From Candidatus Wolfebacteria bacterium GW2011_GWE2_44_13 (GTDB lineage Bacteria > Patescibacteriota > Minisyncoccia > UBA6257 > UBA9933), in the NCBI GenBank assembly GCA_001000675.1, contig LCHW01000001.1:488875-552874 (forward strand): DNA of 64,000 nt. Direction: 5' to 3'. Below are positions 1,735 through 57,179 of the stretch, in pieces (the stretch's first letter is position 1; each line of letters begins with the position of its first letter). The notes below the pieces were generated by a model. That model was given only the letters and a program-made list of their open reading frames with translations. It ran no database searches and was not told where the DNA came from. Made by a program: the position numbers and the translations under genes.

Positions 1735-1762
1735 AAAAACCCTCACGCTGTGAGGGTTTTCT
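1735..1762. terminator. bidirectional rho-independent terminator
   Basis: aaaaaCCCTCACgctGTGAGGGtttt hairpin flanked by A and T runs. Confidence 0.6.
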
Positions 1763-1768
1763 CTATTT

Positions 1769-2152
1769 TTATTTATATTGCTGCGGATTGATCAAGAAAT
1801 CCTTAACTTTCTCCACAACCTCTTTAATTGGATGCTGACTTTTTACGAAGTAATCCTTTGCGCCGAGCGCAATTGCCTGCTTTATATCCTCGTCACCGTC
1901 TAGGTTCGAAAGTACAATAACAGGAAGGTTTTCAAGGTCATGATCCGCCTTAATATCTCGCAAAACGTCTATTCCATCACGTTTTGGAAGCATTAAGTCA
2001 AGTAGAACAAGATCCGGCTTCATTTTTTGAATGATTGGGAGTGCTACTTTTCCATCCATTGCGAGCTCTACCTGGAACTCTTCGGTTTCAAATTTTTCTT
2101 TAAGCACTCTTGCTAGAGCCTCCTCGTCTTCGACGATAACAATTTTATGCAT
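1769..2152 (-). CDS. stand-alone response regulator receiver domain protein (CheY-like)
   Basis: 127 aa. Has the IVEDE acidic pocket, the LVLLDLMLP phospho-acceptor Asp region and a conserved Lys, with no output domain. Confidence 0.85.
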   Translation of the reverse strand: MHKIVIVEDEEALARVLKEKFETEEFQVELAMDGKVALPIIQKMKPDLVLLDLMLPKRDGIDVLRDIKADHDLENLPVIVLSNLDGDEDIKQAIALGAKDYFVKSQHPIKEVVEKVKDFLINPQQYK

Positions 2153-2204
2153 AATTTCAGTATAATCTACCTTTCCTTATTTGTTAAGTATACAGGATAT
2201 CTCC

Positions 2205-3932
2205 TTATTTGTTAATATCCCCGATATCCTCAACGATGTATTTACGAGCTCGGTCAAGATTCGTGCTTATTTTCTTTGCCAAGTACTGGATTTCAGAAAC
2301 TTCCGTTTCGTCGATCTTATCATCTGCATATTTTGCTAAAATACCATCTACATCTTTTTTAATAGTTGCGATTGCATTAGCGATATCTCGTTGTGCGATG
2401 ATTACCTTGCGCGCCTGCTGTGCTTCTTTTAATCGCACGTAGAGCCATGCCGCTCCAAAGCCTCCTAATAATATCACAATCAGTAACGTAAAGAACCAGA
2501 ACTGGGTTATCTCAAGCGATCCTAAAATTAACACAGGGCGCTGTTTCACGGTAACTACCTCAGATGTTACTGGCAAGCTTAATGCGCCCCGTGCATCTTT
2601 TGCAATAACTTCAACGATATATTTCCCTGTCTTAAGCGGCTTATCCATTGATACGGCCCAGCTTCCATGATCATCTGCATGCGTATCAACTAATTGCTCT
2701 ACCTGCCCCCCCTCTGTTCGAACGGAAACACTTATCCCGACATCGGGAATCGCGAACCCAAGGACTTCTAGGTTCCCTTCTCCAACAAAAATATTTCTTG
2801 TTATTGAGGTGATCTTCGGTGCTTCTATCGGTAAAATCTCAAGTGAAAGAATGCTCTCAACGCTATTACCCGCTCGGTCTATTGCTCCAACCTTAACCGT
2901 GTAGAGCCCTGGTTTATGTAAATCAAGTTTATACGGAGATTCTGTGACGTCCTTTACTTCTCCGTTATTTTCTTGAATATAGTATCCTTTTAATCCTGAC
3001 AGTCCGTCACTTGCTGCAAATTCAATCGTAGGATCTGGATGATCAGTTACACCTCCTTCGCGAATTTTTGCCTGAAATGCTGGTGGTGGCGTTAAATCGA
3101 TTGCAATACGATAATGGAGTGTTTGACTCCATCCGACATTATTTCGGAAACGGACGTGCAGATACCACACACCCTCTCCAAGCGGTTGGAAAATTTTATT
3201 ATCGAATAATCCTTCCGATTCGGTAGGAATAAATGTTGGATCTTTATTTACTTCGGTTGCGATAGCTGTGATATCGTTAGACAACTGCCATGATGCAGAA
3301 AATCGAGTTGCAAAGTTGTACCACGCTTCTGGGTCGCGATACCCTGCTACTTGTATTTCTGGCTTTGCCGGTACGCGTGCTGCTGGCTCAGCAGGACGCA
3401 CAATCTGTACTGGCTTAGGTGCTATTGTCTCCAGTTCTGTCGATGGAACGCTTGTAATTGACAACCCCCTCATCGAAGAGAGCACGTTCGTTCCACTTCC
3501 GTCACTTGCAGTTACTGCCCCATCGGTAAAGACGATGTCGGTTTTACCGCTCCCCTTCACTTTGTATGTGATCTTAATGATTTGTAATGATCGTCCGGAA
3601 AATCCGCTCGTTGAACCCCCAAGAAAACTCACTTGCCCCGAATCATTCGAAAATGTCGGTTCGGTAAGCCAAAAATTAAATACAGACCCTGTTTTATCAA
3701 CACTCACAATCTCGAGAACATCCTTTGAAATTTGTACGGTTCCTTGTGCGGCATTCACTCCAACTCCTTCACTGTCCGTTAATACACTTACGGTAAACTG
3801 ATCCCCGATTACAAACGTATCTTTTGTTGTGCTCAACTGCAATGTTGCTGCAGATGCAGCCTGTATTGTTGTAAATAGAAATGCTATGCTCGCAACTAAA
3901 AGTGCAAATTTATATTTCATAACTCGATTCAT
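2205..3932 (-). CDS. membrane-anchored surface protein with N-terminal cohesin-like domain
   Basis: 575 aa. It has a signal peptide, then a cohesin-like beta-sandwich segment (FTVSVLTDSEGVGVNAAQGTVQISKDVLEIVSVD...GQVSFLGG...LQIIKITYKVKGSGKTDIVF). An Ig-like middle domain, a single C-terminal TM helix (FWFFTLLIVILLGGFGAAWLYV) and a coiled-coil cytoplasmic tail follow. Confidence 0.55.
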   Translation of the reverse strand: MNRVMKYKFALLVASIAFLFTTIQAASAATLQLSTTKDTFVIGDQFTVSVLTDSEGVGVNAAQGTVQISKDVLEIVSVDKTGSVFNFWLTEPTFSNDSGQVSFLGGSTSGFSGRSLQIIKITYKVKGSGKTDIVFTDGAVTASDGSGTNVLSSMRGLSITSVPSTELETIAPKPVQIVRPAEPAARVPAKPEIQVAGYRDPEAWYNFATRFSASWQLSNDITAIATEVNKDPTFIPTESEGLFDNKIFQPLGEGVWYLHVRFRNNVGWSQTLHYRIAIDLTPPPAFQAKIREGGVTDHPDPTIEFAASDGLSGLKGYYIQENNGEVKDVTESPYKLDLHKPGLYTVKVGAIDRAGNSVESILSLEILPIEAPKITSITRNIFVGEGNLEVLGFAIPDVGISVSVRTEGGQVEQLVDTHADDHGSWAVSMDKPLKTGKYIVEVIAKDARGALSLPVTSEVVTVKQRPVLILGSLEITQFWFFTLLIVILLGGFGAAWLYVRLKEAQQARKVIIAQRDIANAIATIKKDVDGILAKYADDKIDETEVSEIQYLAKKISTNLDRARKYIVEDIGDINK

Positions 3933-3979
3933 ATTAATGATCTTTTATTATAGTATACCATATGCGTCACTTCTCTGCA

Positions 3980-6900
3980 TTATCTATTTACTACCGATCG
4001 AATAAAGACACTGAAGTCTGAGATGTCTACCTTTCCATCATTATTAAGATCAACCTGTTTTCGTGCTTCAGTATCAGTTGATGCGAATCGCGTTAGGAAA
4101 ATACTCCAATCACCAATATCAATGCCACCATTATTGTTAAGGTCTGCTTGTGTTACGAGTGCACGCGACACCATAAATACTTTTGATGGAGACCAGTCGC
4201 TTTCGATACCATCCTTATCCACTTGCTTCATGCGGATAATGTGACCACCGTATGCAAGACCGTTTGTGTTTACTAGTAATCGATACGTCCCATCATTGCC
4301 CACTTGTGCTTGCGCGGCAACTGGTTGCCCATCGACTTCTGCTCGAATCACGCTTCCTGGCGCGGCAGAACCAGCAATACCTGCGTTATTACCAATAGCT
4401 ACTGTTCGTTGTATTAAGCCTGCCGTTGGCGCAATATACAGGTTCTTCTGCTCGGTTGCCCTTGTTATCTTATCCATCGTATACGTCTTTATCTGCGCAA
4501 CGTTTCCGTCCTTGTCAAGAATTGCCAGCCCGAACGATTCCAGTCCGCGCAATGCTCCTGAGAAGTCAATCGTGAACGTGCCGTCTGCCCGCACCTCTAT
4601 ATTACGTTCCAATGGGATATCTTGGCCACCGATACGAGCAAAGAGTGAAACGCTTGCGCCAGGGTATGCTCTCCCGCTAAAGGTTACTGTCGGGGCGACA
4701 TATACACTACCGCCACCACCACCACCCCCAACCGCTACTTGTCGCACAAAGAACATAACATCCTGTGTCGAGGTTATCGCAAGCGTTGAGGTTGATCCAG
4801 TTAAGCGCTCTAATGACAATTGCACCGTCTCGGCAACGCTGTCAGAAATCGTTACAGTTCCAATACCATCTACTACACTCACAAGCGCACGCCCATCTAG
4901 CTTCATTGGCGACGAAGTAATTGATGATGTACTAAACGCGAGGTATACATCTTCTTGCACCGTCGTATCCAAACCACCATCAGCGTCCTGCGCCTGAATA
5001 ATCACAACTATATTTTCATTCAATCCTGCGTCTGGTGGATCAAGTATAATATACCGGTCTGCCACAACTGGTGCTGCGGTTACTATGAGTGAATCCGATG
5101 CATCAGCAATTCCCGTCGCTCCGTCAGCCGTCGTTGCATTATCTGATGCGGTAATGTCCCATGTACCTGCGTCTTCGTCATAGTACCAGAACGTAGTTGA
5201 GGCAAATCCATTCGCAAGCGTTACAAATGAAATAGAGCTCGTGCCTGTTTCGGTTGCTTGGAATCGTGCGCTTGCACCCGTTGAATTACTGTAGAGATAT
5301 ACAAGGTTACTTCCTGATGTTACGGTATTACCATACTGATCTTTTCTGGTTACCGTATATGGTGTGCTCGTTCCTGCGACGATACTTGCCTGATCAGTGA
5401 TAGTAAATTGAGTCACCGCTCCCGCAGTCCATACAAGCGAAGCCGTATCCGTCACCACCAACCCCGTTCCTTGTGAGTCGGACAGTGCCATATTAACCGT
5501 TTCCGCTACTGTGTCCGTTAATGTGATCGTTCCTTCACCATTTACGATATCAATTAGCGCCTGGCCGTTGGTTAGTCCAGTACCACTCACTGACGTCACT
5601 CCCGTGACCAGTGTTATATCATTTTGATAATTTGTATCAATGTTGCCAAAGTCATCCTGTACTTGAATTGTTACTAATGAAGAATTCCCCGCTGTGATTG
5701 TTAGCGGATCAGGATCCGGATTAAATACAAATCGCGTACCCGTTGCCGTTTGCACCGATAGTACATCGGATGCATCGAGAACCCCTACAGCGCCATCGGG
5801 CGCTGTAGCGTTATCCGATGCAGTAATCGTATGTGCTCCACTCGTCTCTTCGTAGTACCATGCATTCTGTGATGACTGCCCACTGCCAATTGCCACACTC
5901 GTCACTACGTTGCCATTGGTTGCGGCATCGTAGAATGACGTTCCTACTCCAGCGGGATCGGCATACAAATATGCCGTCGTATCGCCCGTAGTTACTAAAT
6001 TATTAAATTGATCCTTACGCACTACGGTGTATTGCACACGGCTCGCTGGATTCATACTAGTACGATCGTTGATCGTAAACTTTGCGATTGCCGCTGCGTT
6101 AATGACAATATCGTCATACCCAATTACAGCTCCTGTTTGCGCAGTTACCTGATATGAATCAGCAACTTCGTTGTAGTACCAGAATTGGCCCACGGCATTC
6201 CCCGAGTCAATCGCGACTGACGTAATTACCGAACTTGAAGTTGCGTTACTACTGTAAAATGTCCCTGGGGTCGTTGTCGGGGTCGCCGAAAGATTAACAG
6301 TTATTGAACCGCTGGTTATTTGGTTGTCATATTGATCGGTTCGCGTAACCGTGTATGCAACCAGATCTCCAGCCGTCGCATTGACCACGTTGTTCAGATT
6401 TAACTTTGCAAATGCACCTACTGCAAATACTACATTCTGTGTCGATGTTGCTACTAAGCCTGTGCTTTGCGTGTCTGATAAGGTAAGCGTGACTGTTTCC
6501 GCAACGGTATCACTTACTTGTGTCGTGCCAACGCCGTTTTCAAGATCTACAAGTACTGGATTTGCCACTGCACTGCCTGTTACCAATAGCGTTACGTCTT
6601 CAGTGAAACTCGGGACTACTTGCCCAAATTCATCTAGCGCACGTACTGTCACCGTAATTGGCGCATCTACGGTACCATCAGTCGGATCAACAATTTCAAA
6701 TCGTACTGCGATTGGTGTTACCAGGATTTCGTTTACTGCATCGTTTATATTTGTATCTCCATCTGGCGTAGTCGCATTATCAGACACCGTTACGGTCGTT
6801 GTTGCTGGCGTGTTGCTGTAAAGCCAGAAGCTGGTCGTTGCATTGCCCGGTGTTAATGTGATCGCAGTTATTTCATTTCCACCTGCATCAGCGTCATAAA

Positions 6901-9900
6901 ACTTTGCCGTGCTTGTCGGGCTCGCATAGAGATACGCTTGTGTTGTGCTTGCGCTTACAAAATTTCCGTACTGATCCTTTCTTCCCGCGACAAATTCCTT
7001 GCGCGTGTTCTGTTCCATGTCACCACTATGTGTCAATGAGAATTGTGTAACCTCACCTGGAGCAAAGACCACATCTTGCGTTGAAGATGCAACGTTCAGC
7101 CCCGTGCCTTGAGAATCTGCAAGTGAGAGGAATACCGTCTCGGCTACTGTATTTGAAATAGTCGTCGTTCCCGAACCATTAACAATACCTACTAAGGTGC
7201 TTGTTGCATTTACTAATCCACCCGTGCTCGATGCAATGAGCGTAACATCGTTTTGATAGTCGGTTATCAGGCGACCTAAGTTATCCTGTGCCTGCACAAC
7301 AACGGTAATTGGCGCATCTACTGTGCCATCAGTTGGATCAATAATTACAAAGCGGGTTGCTACTGCATTTACTGTAAGCGTGCTTGTTGCGTCGTTAATT
7401 CCCGTATCGCCATCAGGTGCTGCCCCGTTATCTGAGGCTGTGATTGTATAGACACCTGGGTCTTCATCATAATACCAAGCCATCGTCGTGCTCGCTCCCG
7501 ATCCAATAATTGCAGAGGTTATTGTATTTCCATTTGTCGCGGCGTCATAAAATACTGCCGATGATGAAGTCGATGTTGTGTAGAAATATACCGTGGTATC
7601 TGGCCCACTGGTCACTGGATTACCGTACTGATCCTTTCGCGTCGTTGTAAATTCTGCGCGATCTCCTACATTAAGCGTTGCCGGCCCCGCAAGCGTGAAT
7701 TGCGTTATTGCACCGTGGCCAAATGTTGCCGACGTTGTCGCAGTCACATCAAGGCCTGTGCTTTGTGTGTCTGCTAATGTAAGGGTGACTATTTCCGCAA
7801 CGGTATTCGATATCGTCGTCGTTCCTACTCCGTTGATGATGTTAATTAATACACTTTCTGGCAATGCCGATCCGCTCACGTTGAGCGTTACGTCGTTTTG
7901 ATAATTTGTTACCACGGTTCCGTTCTCTCGCTGTGCCTGTATCGTTATTGTAATTGGCGCATCAACAGTTCCGCTATATGGATGCCCATTAAATACAAAC
8001 TTTGCTGCTCCACGCGTGATGATAAATGAAGATGTCGCCGTACCTCCTCCTGGAACTGGGTTGATAACCGCAACGGTCGAAGTTCCAAATGCGGTTACTA
8101 GTGATGCCGGGATCGTGGTATTAATAGTAGTCGATGACTGCGTATCTATTGTTAGGGGTGTTCCATCAAACGTAACGGTTGCATCGCTTGCAAATCGACT
8201 CCCGCTAATCGTCAATGAAGTCGTAGCACTTCCCTCCTCAATAGTATTTGGAGAAAGCAGTGTAATTATAGGAGTAGGATTATTTACCACCTGTGAAACT
8301 GTGGCGGAGGTACTTGCGTTGAAGTTGGCGTCACCGTTATATACGGCAGTGATTGAGTGTGCGCCAACAGCTAATGCATCGGTTGCAAATGTCGCAATGC
8401 CACCTGTTAAGGTGCTTGTTGCTAAGTTTGTAACTCCATCTTTAAACGTCACTGTTCCGCTTGGTGTTCCAACTCCGCTCGTCGTGGTGGCGGTGAAGGT
8501 TACTAAATCGCCGTACGTGGACGGATTTAATGATGAGTCAAGTGTGATTGTAATATTTGCTTTGTTAACCGTTTGCAAAACCGCAGCCGATGTACTGGCG
8601 TTGAAGTTGGTATCTCCGTTGTATGTTGCAGTTATGGAATGTGTTGCTATAGAAAGCGTGCTTGTTGCGAGTGTCGCTACTCCATCAGTCAGTGTGCTCG
8701 TTGCAAATGCAACACCCCCGTTTTTAAACGTGACCGTTCCGCTTGGCGTACCTACGCCACTTGTTGTCATGGCGGTGAACGTAACTAAATCGCCGTAGGT
8801 AGATGGGTTCAGCGATGACGCCAACGTAATTGTAATGTTCGCTTTATTTACTGTCTGCAAGACTGCAGCAGAAGTGCTGGCGTTGAAATTGGTGTCTCCG
8901 TTATATACGGCCGTGATTGAGTGCACTCCCACCGCTAACGAAGAGGTTGCAAACGTCGCCACTCCGCCAGCTATTGTACTGGTTGCAAGCGGTGTTGCGC
9001 CGTTGAAGAATGTGACATCGCCCGTTGGAGTTCCCGAGAGTGCTGTTGTTGTTGCAGTGAAGGTTACTAAGTCACCATACGCAGATGGATTTAAAGATGA
9101 GCCTAATGTGATTGTGACCGACTTCTTGTTTACTACCTGTGAAACCGCGGCTGAGGTACTGGCGTTGAAGTTAGCGTCACCGTTATATACAGCAGTAATG
9201 GAGTGAGTTCCTACTAGTAATACATCTGTTGCAAACGTCGCAACTCCCCCAGTTAACGTGCTGGTTGCGAGTGGCGTTGTTTCATTAAAGAATGTCACTG
9301 TCCCGGATGGCGTGTCTACTCCACTCGTTGTCGTCGCAGTAAATGTTACGGAATCGCCGTACGTGGACGGGTTCAACGATGAACCCATTATAATCGTAAT
9401 GTTCGCTTTGTTTACTACCTGTGAAACCGCGGCTGACGTACTGGCGTTGAAGTTGGTGTCGCCATTATATGTTGCGGTGATGGAGTGAGTGGTCGCTGAT
9501 AATGTACTGGTTACAAAGGTTGCAACTCCCCCAGTCATTGTACTGGTTGCGAGCGGTGTTGCACCGTTGAAAAATGTGACGGTTCCGCTTGGTGTCCCTG
9601 AAAGTGCTGTTGTCGTTGCGGTGAACGTGACTGAATCGCTATAGGTAGATGGATTTAATGAAGAGCCGAGCGTGATTGTAATATCCATCTTATTCACCAC
9701 CTGTACTACTGCAGCAGACGTGCTTGCATTGAAATTGGTATCACCGTTGTATACTGCGGTGATTGAGTGTGCGCCGACAGTCAATGCACTTGTTGCAAAC
9801 GTTGCAACGCCACCAGTTAGCGTACTTGTTGCTAAGTTTGTAACTCCATCTTTAAACGTTACTGTTCCGCTTGGCGTTCCTGCTCCGCTTGTAGTCGTAG

Positions 9901-12900
9901 CGGTAAACGTGACCAAGTCGCCGTAGGTGGACGGATTTAGTGATGAATCGAGCGTGATTGTAATATCTGCTTTGTTAACCGTCTGCAAAACCGCAGCCGA
10001 AGTGCTTGCATTGAACATATCGTCGCCGTTGTATGTAGCGGTAATGGAATGCGCACCAACAGTGAGTGTACTCGTTGCAACGGTAGCAACACCTCCGGTC
10101 AATGTGCTCGTTGCAAATGCAACGCCACCGTTTTTAAAGGTAACTGTTCCCGATGGTGTACCCAATCCGCTTGTGGTCGTTGCGGTGAATGTTACTAAGT
10201 CACCGTATGTCGACGGGTTTAGCGATGAAGCTAACGTGATTGTAATATTCGCCTTGTTTACTGTCTGTGAAACTGCAGCGGAGGTACTGGCGTTGAAGTT
10301 AGTGTCGCCGTTGTATGTAGCGGTGATGGAGTGTGCTCCGACAGCCAATGAAGATGTTGCGAGTGTCGCTACTCCTCCTGAAAGTGTTCCATCTCCCAAT
10401 GACACTACGCCATCAAAGAATGTTACTGTTCCACTTGGCGTTCCAAATAGTGCGGTCGTGGTTGCGGTAAAGGTTACTGAATCACCATATGTGGATGGAT
10501 TTAGTGAAGAGCCTAATGTGATCGTTATATTTGCCTTGTTTACCGTCTGCGCAACTGCAGCGGAAGTGCTAGCGTTGAAGTTGGCGTCTCCGTTGTATAC
10601 AGCCGTTATTGAATGCACTCCAACAGTCAACGAAGAGGTTGCAAGTGTCGCAACGCCACCGGTTAACGTGCTTGTCGCAAGCGGAGTTGCACCGTTGAAG
10701 AATGTTACCGTTCCGGATGGTGTGCCAACACTACTTGTCGTGGTTGCGGTGAAGGTAACGGCGTCTCCGTAGGTAGATGGATTTAGTGATGAGTCGAGCG
10801 TGATTGTAATATCTGCTTTGTTGACCGTCTGCGCTACTGCAGCTGAGGTACTGACATTGAAGTTGGTATCACCGTTGTATGTTGCGGTGATCGAGTGTGC
10901 GCCGACAGTGAGGGTACTCGTTGCAACTATAGCTACTCCGCCAGTTAACGTGCTCGTTGCAAATGCAACGCCACCGTTTTTAAACGTCACCGTTCCGGAG
11001 GGGGTTCCTGCTGTCGCAGTGGTTGTTGCAGTAAACGTAACTGAATCGCCGTACGTTGATGGATTCAATGACGACGCCAACGTAATTGTAATATTTGCTT
11101 TGTTGACTGTCTGTGAAACTGCAGCGGAGGTACTTGCATTGAATGTAGCGTCACCGTTGTATGTTGCGGTGATCGAGTGTGCGCCGACAGTTAACGCATC
11201 GGTTAAGAACGTTGCTACTCCAGAAGATAGCGTGCTTGTTGCAAGGGGCGTTGCGCCGTTGAAAAATGTGACGGTTCCTGATGGCGTACCTACGCCACTT
11301 GTAGTAGTAGCGATGAAGGTTACGGAATCGCCGTAGGTGGACGGGTTAAGCGAAGACCCTAATGTAATAGTTATATTTGCTTTGTTGACTGTCTGTGAAA
11401 CTGCAGCGGAGGTACTTGCATTGAAATTTGTATCGCCGTTGTATACTGCGATGATTGAGTGTGCGCCTATGGTAAGCACACTTGTTGCAAACGTTGCAAC
11501 GCCACCCGTTAAGGTACTTGTTGCGAGCGGTGTTGCACCATCGAAGAATGTTGCTGTGCCAGTCGGCGTACTAACGGAGCTTGTCGTGGTAGCGGTAAAC
11601 GTCACCAGATTTCCATACGTAGAAGGGTTCAACGATGAGCCCAGTGTAATTGTAATGTTTGCCTTGTTAACCGTCTGCGATACTGCGGCTGAAGTGCTGG
11701 CGTTAAAGTTAGTGTCGCCGTTGTATACAGCCGTTATTGAATGGGTCGCAACATTTAACGACGATGTTGCAAGTGTCGCAACGCCACCCGTTAAGGTACT
11801 TGTTGCGAGCGGTGTTGCACCATCGAAGAATGTAACTGTTCCCGATGGGGTTCCTGCTGTCGCAGTGGTTGTTGCAGTAAACGTAACTGAATCGCCGTAC
11901 GTTGATGGATTCAATGACGACGCCAACGTAATTGTAATATTCGCTTTGTTGACTGTTTGTGAAACTGTAGCTGAGGTGCTGGCGTTGAAATTAGTGTCAC
12001 CGTTATATACGGCGGTAATTGAGTGTGCACCAACAGTCAATGCACTTACTGCAAACGTTGCAACGCCACCAGTTAGCGTACTTGTTGCTAAGTTTGTAAC
12101 CCCATCTTTAAACGTTACTGTTCCGCTTGGCGTTCCTGCTCCACTTGTAGTCGTCGCTGTAAACGTGACCAAGTCGCCGTAGGTGGACGGGTTAAGCGAA
12201 GACCCTAATGTAATAGTAATATTCGCTTTGTTGACTGTCTGTGATACCGCAGCGGAAGTGCTTGCATTGAATGTAGCGTCGCCGTTGTATGTAGCGGTAA
12301 TGGAATGCGCACCAACAGTGAGTGTACTCGTTGCAACGGTAGCTACTCCATCAGTCAGCGTGCTTGTTGCAAATGCAACACCCCCGTTTTTAAACGTGAC
12401 CGTTCCGCTTGGCGTGCCTACGCCACTTGTTGTCGTGGCGGTGAACGTAACTAAATCGCCGTAGGTAGATGGATTTAGCGATGAGTCAAGCGTAATCGTA
12501 ATGTTCGCTTTGTTGACTGTTTGCAAGACTGTAGCTGAGGTGCTGGCGTTGAAATTAGTGTCACCGTTATATACGGCCGTAATGGAATGCGTTGCTATCG
12601 AAAGCGTGCTCGTTGCTAATGTCGCAACACCACCAGTCAATGTACTTGTTGCGAGCGGCGTTGCGCCGTTGAAAAATGTGACTGTGCCAGTGGGGGTGCT
12701 TACGCTGCTTGTTGTTGTGGCGGTGAAGGTTACTGAGTCTCCATACGTAGACGGATTAAGCGAAGATCCTAATGTAATAGTTATATTTGCCTTGTTTACC
12801 GTAAAGGTTTGTGCATTGCTCACGCCTCCCCCTGGTGTTGGATTGAATACGGTAATTTGTGCCGTAGTAGTCGGCGCTGTCATATCGCTTGCTGGAATCG

Positions 12901-14062
12901 TTGCAGTTAGCTGCGTCGAGCTGGCAAAAACTGTCGTTCGGTCCGATCCATTAAGACGCACGACTGATGCGGAAACAAAATTTGTTCCATTGACCGTCAT
13001 CGTGAATTGCGCATCCCCTACTGTTTTAGAGCTCGGCGATATGCCCGTCGTTGTCGGCACTGGATTGCGTACCTGTATGACCGGCGATAACCCAATGCTT
13101 GTCAGCGTTCCTCCAGCGTCAAAACGCGATTGCGTCGTAAATGTATAGTCACCTGCCGTACTCGGCGCAGTGACTCCGCTCGTACCACCTCCACTTCCGT
13201 ATGTTATTGTTGCCGTTCCTGCCGATGGCATCGTCAAAAAGGGCACGTTAACCGTCCACGGTCCCGCGCCTGAAATTGTTGGCGATCCCGGACCAAGTAA
13301 AACATAATCAACAAAAATCGTTCGCGAATCGCATCCGCTTCCTTTACAAATAATACCCACTCCATTTATTGAAGATCGGGCGGCCGTAAGGTCAAAGGTG
13401 AAGTATGTCCAGGTATTCGCTGCTAATGATTGCACATTGAACGTCTCTTCTGCCGCACCATCACCAAGGTCGGTACCCGTTGTACCATCAACGTATGCCA
13501 CCTGGATATAGTTCATTGCCGACGATATTGCAACCGATGAACGGAGCCATACTCCTAGTTTTGTATACCCAGACCAATCGGCATTCGCAAAACGATAGCT
13601 AAAGGAATCCCCATCATCTGGACCGTTTGCCTGCGTATTAATACATTGGATTGATGCAGTACCCTCCTTTACTGTTCCCGCGGTAGCAGACAACGTGCTG
13701 CATGCATCGAAATCATCCTCTTGCCAGCCCGTTGCCGAGTCGGCAGTTGTTACTACATCGCCCACGATACCAGAGGGTGACGTTGCTGTGATATATCCCG
13801 CCGTTCCGATATTTTCTTGTGGTGCTGACCATCCTGCCGGCACAGCAATAGAAATACCGCCTGAGTCCATTGTTTCTGCGGCTGTAGAAGTAAACGTAAA
13901 CGTATTCCCTGTCGATGAAACATCCGTACTTGTCGGCGTGACGGAATTTGTCCCTGAACCGTTTGCTGCATACACGGGTGCGGTACCCAAAAGAACACTT
14001 CCGATCATTAATCCGACTAGTGCGAATATATTAAACAATGGTACACCTTTTTTATGGGACAT
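3980..14062 (-). CDS. giant secreted adhesin (3360 aa)
   Basis: Single open frame with a signal peptide (LVGLMIGSVLLGTAPVYA). It carries about 24 tandem 90-aa Ig-like repeats of the form VNKANITITLGSSLNPSTYGD...HSITAVYNGDTNFNASTSA, an IPT/TIG-like domain and about 8 larger 150-200-aa repeats. The C-terminus carries two calcium-binding dockerin-type segments. Confidence 0.85.
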   Translation of the reverse strand: MSHKKGVPLFNIFALVGLMIGSVLLGTAPVYAANGSGTNSVTPTSTDVSSTGNTFTFTSTAAETMDSGGISIAVPAGWSAPQENIGTAGYITATSPSGIVGDVVTTADSATGWQEDDFDACSTLSATAGTVKEGTASIQCINTQANGPDDGDSFSYRFANADWSGYTKLGVWLRSSVAISSAMNYIQVAYVDGTTGTDLGDGAAEETFNVQSLAANTWTYFTFDLTAARSSINGVGIICKGSGCDSRTIFVDYVLLGPGSPTISGAGPWTVNVPFLTMPSAGTATITYGSGGGTSGVTAPSTAGDYTFTTQSRFDAGGTLTSIGLSPVIQVRNPVPTTTGISPSSKTVGDAQFTMTVNGTNFVSASVVRLNGSDRTTVFASSTQLTATIPASDMTAPTTTAQITVFNPTPGGGVSNAQTFTVNKANITITLGSSLNPSTYGDSVTFTATTTSSVSTPTGTVTFFNGATPLATSTLTGGVATLATSTLSIATHSITAVYNGDTNFNASTSATVLQTVNKANITITLDSSLNPSTYGDLVTFTATTTSGVGTPSGTVTFKNGGVAFATSTLTDGVATVATSTLTVGAHSITATYNGDATFNASTSAAVSQTVNKANITITLGSSLNPSTYGDLVTFTATTTSGAGTPSGTVTFKDGVTNLATSTLTGGVATFAVSALTVGAHSITAVYNGDTNFNASTSATVSQTVNKANITITLASSLNPSTYGDSVTFTATTTATAGTPSGTVTFFDGATPLATSTLTGGVATLATSSLNVATHSITAVYNGDTNFNASTSAAVSQTVNKANITITLGSSLNPSTYGNLVTFTATTTSSVSTPTGTATFFDGATPLATSTLTGGVATFATSVLTIGAHSIIAVYNGDTNFNASTSAAVSQTVNKANITITLGSSLNPSTYGDSVTFIATTTSGVGTPSGTVTFFNGATPLATSTLSSGVATFLTDALTVGAHSITATYNGDATFNASTSAAVSQTVNKANITITLASSLNPSTYGDSVTFTATTTATAGTPSGTVTFKNGGVAFATSTLTGGVAIVATSTLTVGAHSITATYNGDTNFNVSTSAAVAQTVNKADITITLDSSLNPSTYGDAVTFTATTTSSVGTPSGTVTFFNGATPLATSTLTGGVATLATSSLTVGVHSITAVYNGDANFNASTSAAVAQTVNKANITITLGSSLNPSTYGDSVTFTATTTALFGTPSGTVTFFDGVVSLGDGTLSGGVATLATSSLAVGAHSITATYNGDTNFNASTSAAVSQTVNKANITITLASSLNPSTYGDLVTFTATTTSGLGTPSGTVTFKNGGVAFATSTLTGGVATVATSTLTVGAHSITATYNGDDMFNASTSAAVLQTVNKADITITLDSSLNPSTYGDLVTFTATTTSGAGTPSGTVTFKDGVTNLATSTLTGGVATFATSALTVGAHSITAVYNGDTNFNASTSAAVVQVVNKMDITITLGSSLNPSTYSDSVTFTATTTALSGTPSGTVTFFNGATPLATSTMTGGVATFVTSTLSATTHSITATYNGDTNFNASTSAAVSQVVNKANITIIMGSSLNPSTYGDSVTFTATTTSGVDTPSGTVTFFNETTPLATSTLTGGVATFATDVLLVGTHSITAVYNGDANFNASTSAAVSQVVNKKSVTITLGSSLNPSAYGDLVTFTATTTALSGTPTGDVTFFNGATPLATSTIAGGVATFATSSLAVGVHSITAVYNGDTNFNASTSAAVLQTVNKANITITLASSLNPSTYGDLVTFTAMTTSGVGTPSGTVTFKNGGVAFATSTLTDGVATLATSTLSIATHSITATYNGDTNFNASTSAAVLQTVNKANITITLDSSLNPSTYGDLVTFTATTTSGVGTPSGTVTFKDGVTNLATSTLTGGIATFATDALAVGAHSITAVYNGDANFNASTSATVSQVVNNPTPIITLLSPNTIEEGSATTSLTISGSRFASDATVTFDGTPLTIDTQSSTTINTTIPASLVTAFGTSTVAVINPVPGGGTATSSFIITRGAAKFVFNGHPYSGTVDAPITITIQAQRENGTVVTNYQNDVTLNVSGSALPESVLINIINGVGTTTISNTVAEIVTLTLADTQSTGLDVTATTSATFGHGAITQFTLAGPATLNVGDRAEFTTTRKDQYGNPVTSGPDTTVYFYTTSTSSSAVFYDAATNGNTITSAIIGSGASTTMAWYYDEDPGVYTITASDNGAAPDGDTGINDATSTLTVNAVATRFVIIDPTDGTVDAPITVVVQAQDNLGRLITDYQNDVTLIASSTGGLVNATSTLVGIVNGSGTTTISNTVAETVFLSLADSQGTGLNVASSTQDVVFAPGEVTQFSLTHSGDMEQNTRKEFVAGRKDQYGNFVSASTTQAYLYASPTSTAKFYDADAGGNEITAITLTPGNATTSFWLYSNTPATTTVTVSDNATTPDGDTNINDAVNEILVTPIAVRFEIVDPTDGTVDAPITVTVRALDEFGQVVPSFTEDVTLLVTGSAVANPVLVDLENGVGTTQVSDTVAETVTLTLSDTQSTGLVATSTQNVVFAVGAFAKLNLNNVVNATAGDLVAYTVTRTDQYDNQITSGSITVNLSATPTTTPGTFYSSNATSSSVITSVAIDSGNAVGQFWYYNEVADSYQVTAQTGAVIGYDDIVINAAAIAKFTINDRTSMNPASRVQYTVVRKDQFNNLVTTGDTTAYLYADPAGVGTSFYDAATNGNVVTSVAIGSGQSSQNAWYYEETSGAHTITASDNATAPDGAVGVLDASDVLSVQTATGTRFVFNPDPDPLTITAGNSSLVTIQVQDDFGNIDTNYQNDITLVTGVTSVSGTGLTNGQALIDIVNGEGTITLTDTVAETVNMALSDSQGTGLVVTDTASLVWTAGAVTQFTITDQASIVAGTSTPYTVTRKDQYGNTVTSGSNLVYLYSNSTGASARFQATETGTSSISFVTLANGFASTTFWYYDEDAGTWDITASDNATTADGATGIADASDSLIVTAAPVVADRYIILDPPDAGLNENIVVIIQAQDADGGLDTTVQEDVYLAFSTSSITSSPMKLDGRALVSVVDGIGTVTISDSVAETVQLSLERLTGSTSTLAITSTQDVMFFVRQVAVGGGGGGGSVYVAPTVTFSGRAYPGASVSLFARIGGQDIPLERNIEVRADGTFTIDFSGALRGLESFGLAILDKDGNVAQIKTYTMDKITRATEQKNLYIAPTAGLIQRTVAIGNNAGIAGSAAPGSVIRAEVDGQPVAAQAQVGNDGTYRLLVNTNGLAYGGHIIRMKQVDKDGIESDWSPSKVFMVSRALVTQADLNNNGGIDIGDWSIFLTRFASTDTEARKQVDLNNDGKVDISDFSVFIRSVVNR
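3983..4150 (-). other. C-terminal dockerin-type module of the giant adhesin
   Basis: Duplicated DxNxDGxIDxxD segments (DLNNNGGIDIGDWSIF...DLNNDGKVDISDFSVF) match the dockerin type I calcium-binding repeat pattern. Confidence 0.6.
8270..12800 (-). repeat. intragenic tandem array, about 24 copies of a roughly 270-bp unit (Ig-like repeat)
   Basis: Near-identical 270-bp units visible directly in the sequence. They generate the run of spurious plus-strand ORFs at 8016-13148 in the ORF track. Confidence 0.85.
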
Positions 14063-14142: not shown

Positions 14143-15324
14143 TCATTGTACACCTCCCCTTGTGTAGTTGCTTGATGGGTTCCATAACATATACCCAGCG
14201 TAGTTCTCGCCCAATACATCTTCCGTTGCTTTAATCTGTTTACCAATCATTACGCTGTCATAATCCGCGCCAAGGTCAAAGTCTTGCAACCATGGTCTTA
14301 GTTGTGCAGTCGTTGATGCGGTCGTTCGATATATATCTAATCGTTGCTGTCCTTTTTGCATTGAATCCGCAACGATTTCATAGGGCCACGCTGCTGGCTT
14401 TTTATATCCCATGAATCCGTTTGGGTAGTGTGATGGGTACACCATTGGAGCGATGTAATCGAAATTCGCGTACGCATCTTCTACAATTTGTCCGATTCCA
14501 ATATCCTCCGCCTTAATCATCGTAAAGCCAAACAAGTCTGCCGAAATGATAGTTCCCTTTGTTTGTTCACGCAGATAGCGCATGAACTTTTTTATTGCCT
14601 CTGTCTTTGACGCGTCTACGGGTGTAATGGGATAGCCTATATTTGATAACGATCCATCAGACGGAAATCGAATGTAATCGTAATTCACTTCATCAAACCC
14701 GTAACTCAAAACATCTTTTGATAGCGCTACAACATATTCGTGCACCTCTGTTGATGATGGGTCAACCCATGCGAGTTTTTTATTATCACGCCAAAGGGTC
14801 TTCCCCGATATCACACCACCTGCAGCACGTAGCTTTGCCACGTCTTGCACCGCAAGGTCGGGACGTGCTTCTGCAAAAGCACTGTCTTGGAATACTGCGA
14901 CGCGCGCGATGACGTAAATCTCTTCGTCGTGAAATCTCTGTACTAAGCCCGCGAGATCTTTGATAAATTTTTGACGCAACTTATACTGTTTAACAATTTC
15001 CAGTTGCGAGTCATATGCCACCATGCCAAACGAATCTTTGACATCTATCACAACTGCGTTGAGCCCATCTTTTTTCATATTGATAACCGCCTGCACTTTA
15101 TCTTCGCGGCCACCGGAAGGCGCAGTTAAATATACCGCCTTCATAATTTTTGGCGTTGCCATTCTTTTTATTATTGGCTCTTCTTTTTTTAACAATGCTT
15201 CTTCGCGTGAAGACGGTGTAGAAGTTGCAGTTGGATTGATGAGTGCGTTATTTGTTTGCGACAAACCAAACGCTGCTGCGCTTACCATTACTCCGCCAAC
15301 TCCAATAAAAAATAACTTCTTCAT
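14143..15324 (-). CDS. putative TIM-barrel glycoside hydrolase (DUF4015/GHL10-like), secreted
   Basis: Signal/TM N-terminus. Motifs AVVIDVKD..G.VAYDS, YVIARVAVFQD and GFDEVNYDYIRFP recall the DUF4015 putative glycosyl hydrolase family. Start is placed at the first true ATG (MKKLFF) because the upstream M in the track is a GTG. Confidence 0.55.
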   Translation of the reverse strand: MKKLFFIGVGGVMVSAAAFGLSQTNNALINPTATSTPSSREEALLKKEEPIIKRMATPKIMKAVYLTAPSGGREDKVQAVINMKKDGLNAVVIDVKDSFGMVAYDSQLEIVKQYKLRQKFIKDLAGLVQRFHDEEIYVIARVAVFQDSAFAEARPDLAVQDVAKLRAAGGVISGKTLWRDNKKLAWVDPSSTEVHEYVVALSKDVLSYGFDEVNYDYIRFPSDGSLSNIGYPITPVDASKTEAIKKFMRYLREQTKGTIISADLFGFTMIKAEDIGIGQIVEDAYANFDYIAPMVYPSHYPNGFMGYKKPAAWPYEIVADSMQKGQQRLDIYRTTASTTAQLRPWLQDFDLGADYDSVMIGKQIKATEDVLGENYAGYMLWNPSSNYTRGGVQ

Positions 15325-15535
15325 ATATCTAAAGTATATCACGTATATTCACTATGTAATATAGCAAACAACTCGTACAGTACTGCATTTTTCATTTTTT
15401 AACTTCTCTTTTGTTACATATATTTTCCAAACAAAAATTTATTCCACATCCTTAAGCGGTAGCCCTCTCGGCTTTTGTCGATTACTTAAATATACCATCC
15501 TCACGTATCAATATTACGCATACTGTACGGATCTC

Positions 15536-28146: not shown

Positions 28147-29436
28147 CTACCTTAAGTAGATCGTATGGCTCAGATAGCCTGTAATATACTCGGGATTTAG
28201 GCGATTAGCCCTGTCTTCCTCAATCTTTTTGATTAATTCCATAAAGAATAGGTCTACGTCTTTTTCTTCATGATATTCGGTCAAATTTCTCTTATTAAAA
28301 TACCGCGTTAACGCATCGATTACCTTTTTATAAAAATCTTTGTCCGTAACCCCACTTGCAATGAGATATAGTAACACCATATATGCCGGCGACGCCTTTG
28401 CATCCGCTAATGCCTCCAGTTCAGTTACCATCGTGCCGAACAATGGATCATTTTTATCACTCTTTATTACTGCGTGATACATTGCAGATTTTGCAACAAG
28501 CTCGTTGAAAATCAATTTCGCATCTTTTATAACCAACGTTTCGTATATCTTTACGAGGTTTGCCTTTGTCGCCTTCTCAATTGTTCCTACTTTTATTTCT
28601 GGTCGATAGAGATGAAACGCATTATAATATTGCCGCAAAAATCGCTCTTGTATGGCGTGATTAATTACATTTTCCAAAAATAAATTCCACCCTTTAAAGG
28701 CTTCATCAATATCCATTCCGCCACGTTCCAATTCAGAAAGCATTTTATTTTTAATCAAATCCCCTGCTGCTAACGGTACGCCGCGATCGTTCAATCCTTC
28801 AAACAACATAAATGCATCCGCGTGTGAACTAACCTCGATCATTACTACGAGAATACTATCAATCCATGTAAAAAGCTTTTTCAGTCCTTCCAAGTCATAC
28901 TCTTTCAATCTGCCTAGAAAGTAGTCATACGCTTTATATATTTTTCTCGCCTTTCTTCCCCGTACCTCTGTTCCTATTTTTAACAATCCAAGGTCAGCTA
29001 ATAGCGCCTCAAAGTCCACGAGATTTCCATGCTGTTCTGATAAGATAATGCGCGTCCACGCCTCCCCTCCTCCCTGCACTATGCGCGTTTTAATTGTCTG
29101 CAATAATTCATTTGCTCCTCCCGCTGCATCAGCCGGCAACGCCTTAAGCGCCGCGTGTAATGCACAATACAATACTGTAATAGTTGCGAGACGTTGCTGC
29201 CCGTCAACCACTTCCAATTCCTGCACCCCCAACGTCGCTGTATTCTCATTTTTTACACATAAAATCGAGCCGATGAAATTTCCTTCTCCATTGCCTTCCA
29301 CCATATCATCAAACAATACCTGCCAATTTTCACGAGACCAGATATATTCCCGCTGAAATTTAGGAATAACATACCGAACGTTCCCTCCCTCACGAAAAAG
29401 ATCCGAAATCGTATAGTGGTTTGTATTGTATATCAT
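28147..29436 (-). CDS. DUF262 (GmrSD N-terminal ParB/Srx-like domain) protein, stand-alone
   Basis: The VIPKFQREYIWSRENWQVLFDDM...IGSIL...VVDGQQRLATI segment is the DUF262 signature including DGQQR. No C-terminal DUF1524/HNH motif could be found. Confidence 0.75.
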   Translation of the reverse strand: MIYNTNHYTISDLFREGGNVRYVIPKFQREYIWSRENWQVLFDDMVEGNGEGNFIGSILCVKNENTATLGVQELEVVDGQQRLATITVLYCALHAALKALPADAAGGANELLQTIKTRIVQGGGEAWTRIILSEQHGNLVDFEALLADLGLLKIGTEVRGRKARKIYKAYDYFLGRLKEYDLEGLKKLFTWIDSILVVMIEVSSHADAFMLFEGLNDRGVPLAAGDLIKNKMLSELERGGMDIDEAFKGWNLFLENVINHAIQERFLRQYYNAFHLYRPEIKVGTIEKATKANLVKIYETLVIKDAKLIFNELVAKSAMYHAVIKSDKNDPLFGTMVTELEALADAKASPAYMVLLYLIASGVTDKDFYKKVIDALTRYFNKRNLTEYHEEKDVDLFFMELIKKIEEDRANRLNPEYITGYLSHTIYLR

Positions 29437-29452
29437 GTATGTTTTATGGACG

Positions 29453-30838
29453 TTACGCTATTTCTTTTTTCGCTTCCTTATATGGGAAGGTAATTGTAAA
29501 TTTCGAACCCACTCCTTCCATACTCTCTACGGAAATATCTCCGTCCATTTGTTCACAAATAGCTTTTGTAATCCATAATCCAAGCCCTGTTCCTGAAATA
29601 TGTTCTGTATGTTCTGTTTTAACTCGATAGAATTTTTGGAACAAGCTTCGCTGTGCAATTGCTGACATTCCCAACCCGGTATCCTCAATGATAAGCACAA
29701 ATCGTTTGTGAATTTTATCTACTTTTGTAATCACCTGAACCGTTCCTTTCTCGGTATACTTAATTGAGTTTCCAATTAAGTTGATAAGCACCTGTCTTAA
29801 TCGCTTTGTATCAATAGCTACTACTGCAGGCTCTGCAACTTCTTTATTCTCATACTCAAGCACAAGACCCTTCTGTTCTGCGCTATCACGTATTGTGTCA
29901 ACAACTTCTTGGATCATCGGATACGGTGATTCGTCACTCATCTCAAGCACAAGTCGTCCTTGTTCGATACGTGAAACATCAAGAATATCAGAAATAAGCG
30001 TCATTAGGTTGTCCGCATACGAAACAATCATTCTTAATCGATCGGTTCGTTGCTCCTCGGTCAACTTGCTAGCAGCCTGTTGTAACAACTCTGCATATCC
30101 CTTCATAACCACAACAGGTGTCTTAAGTTCATGTGCCGCCATGGAAATAAAGTCGTCTTTCATCTTGTCTATTTCCTGCAATTTTCCAAAAAGCACCGCG
30201 TATTGGAACATGCGCGTATGATTGATAATCAATATCAATACCAAGATAATAACCCCAAATAAGACATAATACGCCTGCTCCTGTGCTCGACGAGATAGCT
30301 CATCAGCATCACTTACTGACATTGCCATACGAATTAACCCAACCGCCTCCCCTTCTTTATTATGTAATGGCTTAATAACATTCCACTGACGCAATCCTCC
30401 GTCATTACTATCAAATCCAATTCCATCAGCATTCTTATTCCATGCAATCGCACTTAAGTCTTGCATCTTTTTTTCCGTATCAGTAGACATCTGCTGTCCC
30501 TCGCGCACCATAGACGCAATAGGCGCGTATCCTTCGCGATCACTTCCTGTAATTTCAATAAATTCGATATCTGGATTTGCATCCATGACGGCGTTTATTT
30601 TTTCTTGCAATTCTTCCTTTTCTGTATATTCAGTTACAAAAACGCCGAGCATTTTTTCTGCTGCAAATACCTGCGATTGCACAATCTCATCGATATTTCT
30701 TGTAAACGCATCAACGGTTGTTTTTACGTTGTAATACAATGCAACTGGTATTACAACCAGCAACACGAGTGATGATAATATCCCTGGATTTTTTCGTACA
30801 AACCCAAAGGCTTTTTTTACATATTCTATAACGATCAT
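29453..30838 (-). CDS. sensor histidine kinase
   Basis: N-terminal TM, periplasmic-type domain and second TM. Has a HisKA H-box (AAHELKTP) and a HATPase_c domain with N, G1 (DTGLGM) and G2 (GTGLGL) boxes. Confidence 0.85.
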   Translation of the reverse strand: MIVIEYVKKAFGFVRKNPGILSSLVLLVVIPVALYYNVKTTVDAFTRNIDEIVQSQVFAAEKMLGVFVTEYTEKEELQEKINAVMDANPDIEFIEITGSDREGYAPIASMVREGQQMSTDTEKKMQDLSAIAWNKNADGIGFDSNDGGLRQWNVIKPLHNKEGEAVGLIRMAMSVSDADELSRRAQEQAYYVLFGVIILVLILIINHTRMFQYAVLFGKLQEIDKMKDDFISMAAHELKTPVVVMKGYAELLQQAASKLTEEQRTDRLRMIVSYADNLMTLISDILDVSRIEQGRLVLEMSDESPYPMIQEVVDTIRDSAEQKGLVLEYENKEVAEPAVVAIDTKRLRQVLINLIGNSIKYTEKGTVQVITKVDKIHKRFVLIIEDTGLGMSAIAQRSLFQKFYRVKTEHTEHISGTGLGLWITKAICEQMDGDISVESMEGVGSKFTITFPYKEAKKEIA

Positions 30839-30839
30839 A

Positions 30840-32663: not shown

Positions 32664-32675
32664 AACAATATTCTA

Positions 32676-33062
32676 TTATTTAGTTTTATTTATTATCTCC
32701 GCAATCTTCGGAATAAACTCTGCAAAATCCGCCGCCTTGCTCCAATAATCAACTGCACCTACTTCTTTAGCGGCTTTTATATCCTCTGGCCGATCATCAA
32801 TGCTTGTCAAGAATACAACAGGAATATCTTTGCAGTCAGAATCACTTTTTAACATATCAAGTGCTTCAGGACCATCAGCTTCTGGCATTATTACATCGAG
32901 TAGTATAAAATCTGGCTTTTCTGCTTTTGCCATAGCATACCCTTCGTTTCCGTTTTTTGCATACAAAACAAAATAACCTGCCATCGTAAGGCGTTCTCCA
33001 AATATCTCTCTTAACGCAGGGTCATCATCAACTACGAGTATCCTTTTTTGTGTTTCATTCAT
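32676..33062 (-). CDS. stand-alone response regulator receiver domain protein
   Basis: 128 aa receiver with ILVVDDD, a phospho-acceptor Asp (ILLDVIMP) and a conserved Lys. It is first in an apparent RR, surface protein, HK operon. Confidence 0.85.
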   Translation of the reverse strand: MNETQKRILVVDDDPALREIFGERLTMAGYFVLYAKNGNEGYAMAKAEKPDFILLDVIMPEADGPEALDMLKSDSDCKDIPVVFLTSIDDRPEDIKAAKEVGAVDYWSKAADFAEFIPKIAEIINKTK

Positions 33063-33139
33063 GCGCCGTTTGTATTGCCATCTCTGTTTATAATTATTCG
33101 CAGTATACCATATATTCCTATTTTAAAACAAAAAAGGCG

Positions 33140-33170
33140 GGACACAGGGTCCCGCCATCTTACTATATAG
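33140..33170 (-). terminator. rho-independent terminator
   Basis: GGCGGGACcctgtgtCCCGCC hairpin followed by tttttt on the minus strand. Confidence 0.5.
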
Positions 33171-33180
33171 GTAAAGTTTA

Positions 33181-34587: not shown

Positions 34588-34740
34588 GCCCGTACTCCTT
34601 TTCGCTCGCTCGTGCGAGCGGGTTCGTATTGCGTTAACGTACCAATCTTTCACCCTTTCGCCTTATATATAATTCACTTATCTATATGTCAAAATTACTG
34701 TCTATTTTATACCATATATCCAAAAATAATGCAATAGCTA

Positions 34741-55320: not shown

Positions 55321-55326
55321 ACATTT

Positions 55327-56235: not shown

Positions 56236-56315
56236 GTTTATTTAAGTATACCATTTTTGAGATAATGTGGTCAGTCACCATTTATTCCACTTTCTAATTC
56301 CCCTTTCATCAACTC

Positions 56316-56382
56316 CTCAATCTTACCAAATTTTGACCTGTTATGTAACCAACACAAAACGAGGCCTGCGGGCCTCGTTTTT
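56316..56382 (-). promoter_or_regulatory. terminator-plus-promoter intergenic cassette, copy A
   Basis: Read on the minus strand: hairpin AAAACGAGGCCcgcaGGCCTCGTTTTgtgttgg, then TTACAT-17-TAAGAT. It serves the NYN-1 3' end and the MTase 5' end. Confidence 0.55.
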
Positions 56383-56482
56383 AGGTGAATTTGATGTGGG
56401 GGGGTGGATTCTTTAATGCAATACAATAGCAACTCTGAATTCTCGCCCACGTAAAGTCCGCCGGGGGCGGACCACGGGGCGA

Positions 56483-56593
56483 GCGAGACTAGGATAATCT
56501 GCTGTGGATAGCTTGCTTTTGCTTTCCATGGAAATAGCTTTAGCCACCTTAAGCATTACCCACCATTGACATTAACTGCTTGCTTGGTATACT
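56483..56593. repeat. conserved roughly 100-bp module downstream of the NYN gene, copy A
   Basis: About 92% identical to 61118-61216. It contains a plus-strand promoter TTGACA-16-TATACT at 56566-56593. Confidence 0.6.
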
Positions 56594-56599
56594 TTAAAT

Positions 56600-56657
56600 A
56601 TCACGACGAGGGCAGGTTCATAAGGGTTGGTCCTTATGTAATTGGCCCTCTTTTTTG
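56600..56657 (+). ncRNA. predicted short cis-antisense RNA overlapping the NYN-1 3' end
   Basis: Starts about 7 nt after the -10 TATACT. GAGGGC...GCCCTC hairpin followed by TTTTTTGT. It overlaps the last roughly 13 codons and the stop of the minus-strand NYN gene. Confidence 0.4.
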
Positions 56658-57163: not shown

Positions 57164-57179
57164 ACTTTTATATATAAAT

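Follow-up and report, generated by a model that had tools for sequence, protein, structure and literature searches.

The 64,000-nucleotide (nt) window analysed here, positions 488,875 to 552,874 of the forward strand of contig LCHW01000001.1 from Candidatus Wolfebacteria bacterium GW2011_GWE2_44_13, a groundwater bacterium with a tiny genome, carries two neighbouring minus-strand genes that we propose, with a confidence of about 70%, to encode a two-part surface-display device: a membrane socket of 575 residues bearing an N-terminal cohesin domain, and a secreted immunoglobulin (Ig)-repeat passenger of 3360 residues tethered to it by a C-terminal dockerin. Both open reading frames (ORFs) are found where an earlier interpretation of this DNA, made without database searches and hereafter called the sequence-only reading, had placed them, and they are separated by 47 nt (3933..3979; Table 1, with window coordinates counted from its first letter). 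Close to 80 related species have the same two genes next to each other, and the pair is therefore probably a conserved means by which Parcubacteria display proteins of the surface or of attachment.

The last ~55 residues of the passenger hold the segments DLNNNGGIDIGDWSIF and DLNNDGKVDISDFSVF, and its C-terminal end reads ...QADLNNNGGIDIGDWSIFLTRFASTDTEARKQVDLNNDGKVDISDFSVFIRSVVNR. Pfam Dockerin_1 (PF00404, gathering score 22.9 bits) matches residues 3306-3356, scoring 24.1 bits within the whole passenger and 31.9 bits for the segment scanned by itself, in an alignment that covers both loops at once (profile positions 2-55 of 57). The loops themselves, DLNNNGGIDIGD and DLNNDGKVDISD, are 31 residues apart, and the two segments, D-L-N-N-N-G-G-I-D-I-G-D-WSIF and D-L-N-N-D-G-K-V-D-I-S-D-FSVF, both fit a D1-x-N3-x-D/N5-G-x-h-D9-x-x-D12 loop followed by the start of a helix; a search through all six frames of the 64 kb with D-x-[NDS]-x-[DN]-G-x-h-[DNST] returned just these two matches. 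Neither D1 nor D12 varies in either segment across 78 homologues, and N3, D5, G6, S14 and F16 are nearly invariant, which bears out the two dockerin-type segments, with their calcium-ligand positions, that the sequence-only reading had seen at the end of the giant protein. The best PDB match of the dockerin family profile is the dockerin 2y3n_B (9.9e-8), with many further dockerins below it and the dockerin-like module 2jnk of Clostridium perfringens also among the matches. Judged by these features of its sequence, which follow the type I plan of two duplicated segments of ~22 residues, each with a 12-residue calcium loop ahead of a helix, the passenger appears to end in a canonical two-loop dockerin.

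The partner domain is found at the N-terminus of the socket and consequently farthest from the membrane. Cohesin (PF00963, gathering score 24.1 bits) matches residues 29-176 with 28.0 bits and an E value of 2.8e-6 when this region is scanned alone, so that both families anticipated by the sequence-only reading exceed their gathering scores, and the same Pfam family is precomputed on most socket homologues. A Foldseek search with the full-length socket model returned generic tandem Ig/FnIII chains only, and a full-length PDB sequence search nothing relevant; the isolated domain was modelled for the former reason. The AlphaFold2 (AF2) model of residues 24-167 is all beta and confident, with a predicted local distance difference test score (pLDDT) of 89.3 and a predicted template modelling score (pTM) of 0.84, and its top 50 PDB matches in Foldseek are all cohesins (E values 6e-9 to 1e-6, template modelling (TM) scores 0.61-0.78). 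They span type I, II and III cellulosomal cohesins and the anchoring cohesins of OlpA and OlpC, whose complexes 4dh2 and 3ul4 are among the top matches, and they also take in the non-cellulosomal cohesins of C. perfringens and Archaeoglobus fulgidus (2jh2, 2vo8, 2w1n and 2xdh, TM scores 0.66-0.77). At the level of the predicted fold, the N-terminal domain is a cohesin of the nine-stranded beta-sandwich type with a divergent sequence.

The remainder of the socket is consistent with a membrane anchor. Its N-terminus is signal-peptide-like (MNRVMKYKFALLVASIAFLFTTIQAASA, then A), as is that of the passenger, and the full-length AF2 model (pLDDT 83.6) consists of a signal helix, four beta domains (residues 29-162, 193-278, 302-366 and 373-475) and two helices, at residues 477-534 and 542-574. 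The three beta domains that form the stalk match InlK_D3/Y_Y_Y and Big_13 in Pfam; the single transmembrane helix that opens the first long helix is directly followed by the basic stretch RLKEAQQARK, and the tail beyond it belongs to no Pfam family. We found no SLH domain by Pfam and no LPXTG motif at the C-terminus of the socket. The signal peptide, cohesin and lone transmembrane helix of the sequence-only layout are upheld, unlike its coiled-coil tail, which is predicted only as a helical hairpin. Conservation, read from 28 homologues, is highest in the cohesin domain, the second beta domain and a few tail residues (R515, D516, D527, Y565 and I573), with the cohesin as the most conserved extracellular part and the motifs NAAQ, SVFNFW, F-GGSTSG and DGAVTASDGSGTN standing out within it. 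The protein is identical to one in groundwater bin ACD_81 and to one in GCA_003508115.1. As a separate observation, a socket stalk domain (profile positions ~245-365) is repeated 13 to 44 times in other giant proteins of 2400-6900 residues (P0121, P0197, P0220 and others).

The passenger has the layout of a long fibre. Its signal peptide is followed by an N-terminal domain of ~310 residues, a first TIG domain, 16 Big_3_5 repeats, the second of its two Pfam TIG matches, ~1100 residues of Ig-like domain pairs and the Big_6/Big_13 Ig domains that precede the C-terminal dockerin; no LPXTG motif is seen when its C-terminus is read in translation. Tandem Repeats Finder resolves 14.3 copies of a 282-nt period with 70% matches (8762..12799), and because the copies are only 70% identical in DNA the repeats appear to be old, not the product of recent expansion. 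An assembly artefact is ruled out by the same divergence and by independent ENA, NCBI and JGI assemblies in which the same 3360-residue product is called.

To follow the pair beyond this genome, one genome per species was scanned, which gave 182 stretches with a relative of the socket, and 80 loci of ~20 kb each were kept, all from other Parcubacteria-type species (labels L006-L085 among them); the named relatives, Wolfe-, Colwell-, Uhr- and Staskawiczbacteria, are Parcubacteria/Paceibacteria within the Candidate Phyla Radiation (CPR). The passenger's last 306 residues, comprising two Ig-like domains and the dockerin, are matched in 78 of these loci, and in every one of the 78 the matching ORF is the same-strand gene directly upstream of the cohesin gene, across lineages with socket proteins only 36-49% identical to the query; the co-occurrence in relatives that the sequence-only reading had proposed to check is thereby observed. 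The profile searches proposed with that reading likewise came out in its favour, and neither of the outcomes that it had named as refuting appeared. One of the two exceptions, L012, is interrupted by a contig end. With family hidden Markov models, the window and each locus yield a single dockerin and a single cohesin, and all ten complete passengers from other loci carry Dockerin_1 at the extreme C-terminus, with nine scores that reach or exceed the gathering score. The bodies of these passengers are unrelated to one another, ranging over Beta_helix, a Sortilin-Vps10-type propeller, fn3, TIG, Flg_new_2 (InlB-type B repeats), YDG and Big_3_5, and neither the window passenger nor the ten others contain a catalytic Pfam domain, in agreement with the earlier suggestion that the cargo is not enzymatic. 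The Big_6/Big_13 domains and the dockerin together behave in these alignments as a conserved plug, and the overall pattern, as far as sequence comparison can describe it, is one of conserved socket, conserved plug and freely exchanged cargo. We note separately that L020, L030, L040 and many 'binchicken' records have this Parcubacteria-type pair under a title that names Gammaproteobacteria, Methylococcaceae or Saccharibacteria; they are probably mislabelled or contaminated bins.

In light of these results, we propose that the socket would be exported, relieved of its signal peptide and held in the membrane by its C-terminal transmembrane helix, with RLKEAQQARK remaining on the cytoplasmic side and the three Ig-like stalk domains and Pro-rich linker holding the cohesin away from the membrane. 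The passenger, exported separately through Sec, would fold its dockerin around two calcium ions and bind the cohesin non-covalently; as it would be caught by its C-terminal dockerin, its N-terminal domain would become the free distal tip of a tethered Ig-repeat fibre. The topology signals agree with such an arrangement: N-terminal signal peptides on both proteins, a distal cohesin, and basic residues after the transmembrane helix. A passenger body swapped freely across relatives fits a variable adhesin or surface fibre contacting a host cell or particle, and we infer that calcium-dependent binding of the two proteins would serve adhesion and could have a role in host attachment.

By analogy, the pair is best read as a counterpart of the CttA-ScaE system of Ruminococcus that is anchored by a transmembrane helix. 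In the sca cluster cttA lies directly upstream of scaE, mirroring the gene order described here. The X-dockerin of Ruminococcus flavefaciens CttA docks onto the ScaE cohesin, which is anchored to the cell wall, and keeps the cell on cellulose, so that there too a non-catalytic protein with N-terminal binding modules is held by its C-terminal dockerin on a cell-anchored single cohesin (PMC4266597). The differences are considerable: ScaE is linked covalently to the cell wall by sortase, whereas the present socket has a transmembrane helix and a conserved cytoplasmic tail; CttA belongs to the multi-scaffoldin cellulosome of a Firmicute, whereas here a Parcubacterium has one cohesin, one dockerin and no enzymes; the present passenger is much the larger of the two and differs from one species to the next; and a CheY-like regulator and a histidine kinase accompany the module. 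OlpA, OlpC and SdbA of Clostridium thermocellum are likewise surface proteins in which one cohesin tethers one dockerin-bearing partner, but those have SLH cell-wall anchors, and their partners are cellulosome enzymes or scaffoldins. The toxin complexes of C. perfringens and the modules of A. fulgidus likewise place cohesin and dockerin folds outside cellulose degradation, but they join secreted glycoside hydrolases or have no known role, and none is a syntenic socket-and-cargo pair with a transmembrane anchor. Gram-positive fibrillar adhesins share the N-terminal tip, the long Ig-like stalk and the C-terminal cell attachment; theirs is made by LPXTG and sortase, whereas attachment here would be non-covalent and to a separate membrane protein. 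In Omnitrophota, too, giant ORFs carry non-cellulosomal dockerins, for which a role as adhesins has been suggested (PMC10066038).

The principle of cohesin-dockerin anchoring is already known, and databases label the socket a 'cohesin domain-containing protein'; what is new is that the socket is anchored by a transmembrane helix, that the pair is conserved and syntenic throughout a CPR class, that its cargo is variable and non-enzymatic, and that it is genetically linked to a two-component system. In the literature on cohesins and dockerins in CPR, Patescibacteria or Parcubacteria, of which our coverage is incomplete, we found no such pair or anchoring system. How ultra-small CPR bacteria attach to their hosts is an open question, and to our knowledge almost none of them has been cultured. 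A conserved socket gene beside a cargo gene would offer a simple genomic rule for spotting each species' main displayed surface protein, and the defined junction could be tested with small recombinant domains and might provide a route to blocking or labelling attachment. Cohesin-dockerin biology would further be extended beyond enzymes and cellulose, to a transmembrane-anchored cohesin protein with a genetic tie to two-component signalling.

A distinct, though minority, chance is that the two proteins do bind, but for a purpose other than host attachment, with the passenger forming an envelope or fibre coat (S-layer-like or glycocalyx-like) or acting as a CttA-like polysaccharide tether through a carbohydrate-binding tip. 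The closest analogue, CttA-ScaE, indeed binds substrate and not host. The tip domain, which has no Pfam match above threshold and no PDB sequence match, draws CBM_11/CBM_4_9 matches in 4 of 13 homologues and may be a jelly roll of the carbohydrate-binding-module (CBM) type, but all of these hints are sub-threshold and the domain itself is seen in 14 of the 80 loci only; a putative DUF4015 hydrolase lies just upstream of the passenger gene in this lineage, but is kept there in no more than three loci. The socket family is very large and uniform, as might be expected of a housekeeping envelope part: it counts at least 475 homologues, the best 120 of them sharing 40-77% identity over 93-100% of the query and mostly ~570-580 residues long, and 2835 matches at E<=1e-30 among 50%-identity representative proteins, with more than 100 of the best 150 representative matches being single-stretch proteins of 550-610 residues. 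The passenger heads, however, are swapped for unrelated folds, which would be unusual for lattice-forming surface-layer proteins, and we continue to prefer the display of variable attachment proteins on a conserved membrane socket.

The genes around the pair raise a further, more speculative reading. A homologue of the CheY-like single-domain response regulator is found in 72 of the 80 loci, sometimes in two to four copies per locus; in 43 loci it comes immediately after the cohesin gene and in 18 immediately before the dockerin gene, and a PAS/GAF histidine kinase adjoins the regulator in 55, almost always on the same strand (for example in L076, 5149..11434, and L040, 5429..14538). The regulator in the window is probably co-transcribed with the dockerin-cohesin pair; the sequence-only reading had recognized it but called it an orphan, a label that does not hold in view of the PAS histidine kinase beside it in relatives. 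The window's own nearest kinase of the pair-flanking family is 25 kb off, in a second cluster. Single-domain response regulators have no DNA-binding output; for this one, a candidate target is the socket's conserved cytoplasmic tail. It is conceivable, though we regard it as unlikely, that the pair forms the core of a contact-sensing adhesion receptor, shared throughout the Parcubacteria, whose socket tail (the R515, D516, Y565 hairpin) would talk to the CheY-like regulator and the PAS kinase, such that load on the fibre or its engagement on a host cell would be signalled into the episymbiont, or the socket would be regulated from inside. Were this true, no earlier case of signalling through a cohesin-dockerin junction would precede it, and it would offer a way into the question of how attachment to a host is sensed by CPR bacteria.

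Several results weigh against the display device as a whole. A Pfam scan of the full-length 575-residue socket lists Ig-like families only and no Cohesin, and the score of the domain scanned alone is modest; the cohesin profile gives six weak matches against the PDB (best E value 0.022), of which five are to cellulosomal proteins that bear cohesins, and the assignment as a cohesin holds at the level of the fold. No ligand for the tip domain is indicated by the Pfam or PDB sequence searches. Locus L066 has a cohesin gene and no dockerin gene within 10 kb; its cargo gene may lie elsewhere or have been lost. At the C-terminus of the passenger, EF-hand_1 scores 31.7 bits on the isolated segment versus 31.9 for Dockerin_1, and true EF-hand proteins rank in the same range among the PDB matches of the dockerin profile. 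Finally, dockerin-cohesin covariation over 78 pairs is not above that of a control domain (peaks of mutual information with average product correction 0.45 versus 0.33, the top pairs using a non-dockerin column). As an observation on that locus, the gene order in L066 (7362..11710) is kinase, kinase, regulator, cohesin, regulator.

The nearly equal profile scores, the EF-hand calcium-binding proteins among the best PDB matches and the indecisive covariation would all suit a C-terminal module that is a generic EF-hand-type calcium stabiliser, or that binds a ligand of its own without docking, its adjacency to the socket gene having arisen through co-regulation of surface proteins; many non-cellulosomal dockerin-like modules reportedly occur in genomes without any cohesin. 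With scores this close, sequence alone cannot tell a dockerin, whose F-hand fold lacks the entering helix of a canonical EF-hand pair, from an EF-hand, and we read the module as a dockerin from its duplication, its position in the protein and its context. Such a module is made very unlikely, in our view, by the adjacency seen in 78 of 80 loci, each with a single dockerin and a single cohesin and with sockets so far diverged from the query, and also by the Dockerin_1 match that spans both loops, by the module's constant place at the very C-terminal end of secreted proteins, and by the cohesin being better conserved than any other extracellular part of the socket. A minimal cellulosome, that is, a scaffoldin showing dockerin-bearing carbohydrate-active enzymes, is scarcely credible despite the presence of both families and of a putative DUF4015 hydrolase nearby, as the socket has a single cohesin, the only dockerin across the 64 kb belongs to an Ig-repeat protein that is not catalytic, the ten other passengers have no catalytic Pfam domain, the hydrolase has no dockerin and is not conserved beside the pair, and one cohesin and one dockerin per locus differ from the several cohesins and multiple dockerin enzymes of a cellulosome.

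Table 1. Coordinates of the socket-passenger pair and of neighbouring features in the window
Feature	Position (nt)	Strand	Basis
Passenger gene, secreted 3360-aa Ig-repeat protein	3980..14062	-	ORF (ATG), translation, Pfam
Passenger signal peptide, aa 1-32, MSHKKGVPLFNIFALVGLMIGSVLLGTAPVYA, then A	13967..14062	-	n-h-c pattern read from translation, inferred
Passenger N-terminal (putative distal tip) domain, aa ~33-345	13028..13966	-	blastp homologues in 14/80 loci
Big_3_5 Ig-like repeat array, ~94 aa per repeat	8288..12799	-	Pfam, 16 stretches, 931 bits
Two Ig-like domains (Big_6/Big_13) preceding the dockerin	4178..4885	-	Pfam Big_6, 32.2 bits
Dockerin, aa 3304-3358	3989..4153	-	Pfam Dockerin_1, loop scan, alignment of 78 homologues
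Two dockerin calcium loops, each leading into a [WF]S[IV]F helix start	4118..4144 and 4025..4051	-	Loop-pattern scan
Socket gene, 575-aa membrane protein	2205..3932	-	ORF (ATG), translation, homologues
Cohesin domain, aa 29-162	3447..3848	-	Pfam scan of the domain alone, AF2, Foldseek
Pro-rich linker between cohesin and stalk, aa 163-192	3357..3446	-	
Stalk, three beta domains, aa 193-280, 285-368 and 372-465	2538..3356	-	AF2 (pLDDT mostly 86-95), Pfam
Single transmembrane helix, aa 477-498, FWFFTLLIVILLGGFGAAWLYV	2439..2504	-	Translation; opens predicted helix 477-534
Cytoplasmic helical tail, aa 499-575	2208..2438	-	AF2 helices 477-534 and 542-574; conservation in 28 homologues
CheY-like single-domain response regulator	1769..2152	-	Pfam Response_reg, 87 bits
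Palindromic terminator-like hairpin, AAAACCCTCAC-AGC-GTGAGGGTTTTT	1736..1760	.	Directly past the regulator stop codon
DUF4015 putative glycosyl hydrolase, ORF upstream of the passenger gene	14143..15342		Pfam
Second cluster, 490-aa TIG-domain protein	33181..34653	-	
Second cluster, CheY-like regulator	32676..33062	-	
Second cluster, 607-aa protein with N-terminal hydrophobic segment, Big_13 and C-terminal transmembrane helix	30840..32663	-	
Second cluster, HisKA/HATPase_c kinase	29453..30874	-	Window's best match to the pair-flanking kinase family

Of the genes that flank the pair, the glycoside hydrolase of the sequence-only reading is present as the DUF4015 protein, but conservation in 3 of the 80 loci, all of them Wolfebacteria, places it outside the conserved module, and we reject it as a part of the device; a HI0933-like flavoprotein is also found among the flanking genes. 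The second cluster, of surface proteins with two-component genes (29453..34653, minus strand), contains neither cohesin nor dockerin. The gap between the cohesin and regulator genes (2159..2215, minus strand) contains two copies of a 14-nt direct repeat, TTAACAAATAAGGA, at a distance of 28 nt, the first copy overlapping the cohesin stop codon and each copy yielding a promoter-like TTAACA-17-TATACT match, and the 47-nt gap between the passenger and cohesin genes holds a TGGTATACT / TATAAT -10-like element. Elsewhere in the window we noted genes for a GmrSD-type (28147..29436) and an AlwI-type (53644..55320) restriction endonuclease, the latter within a stretch of low GC content (54001..62000; 0.32-0.38 versus ~0.43 elsewhere) that could be an acquired defence island.

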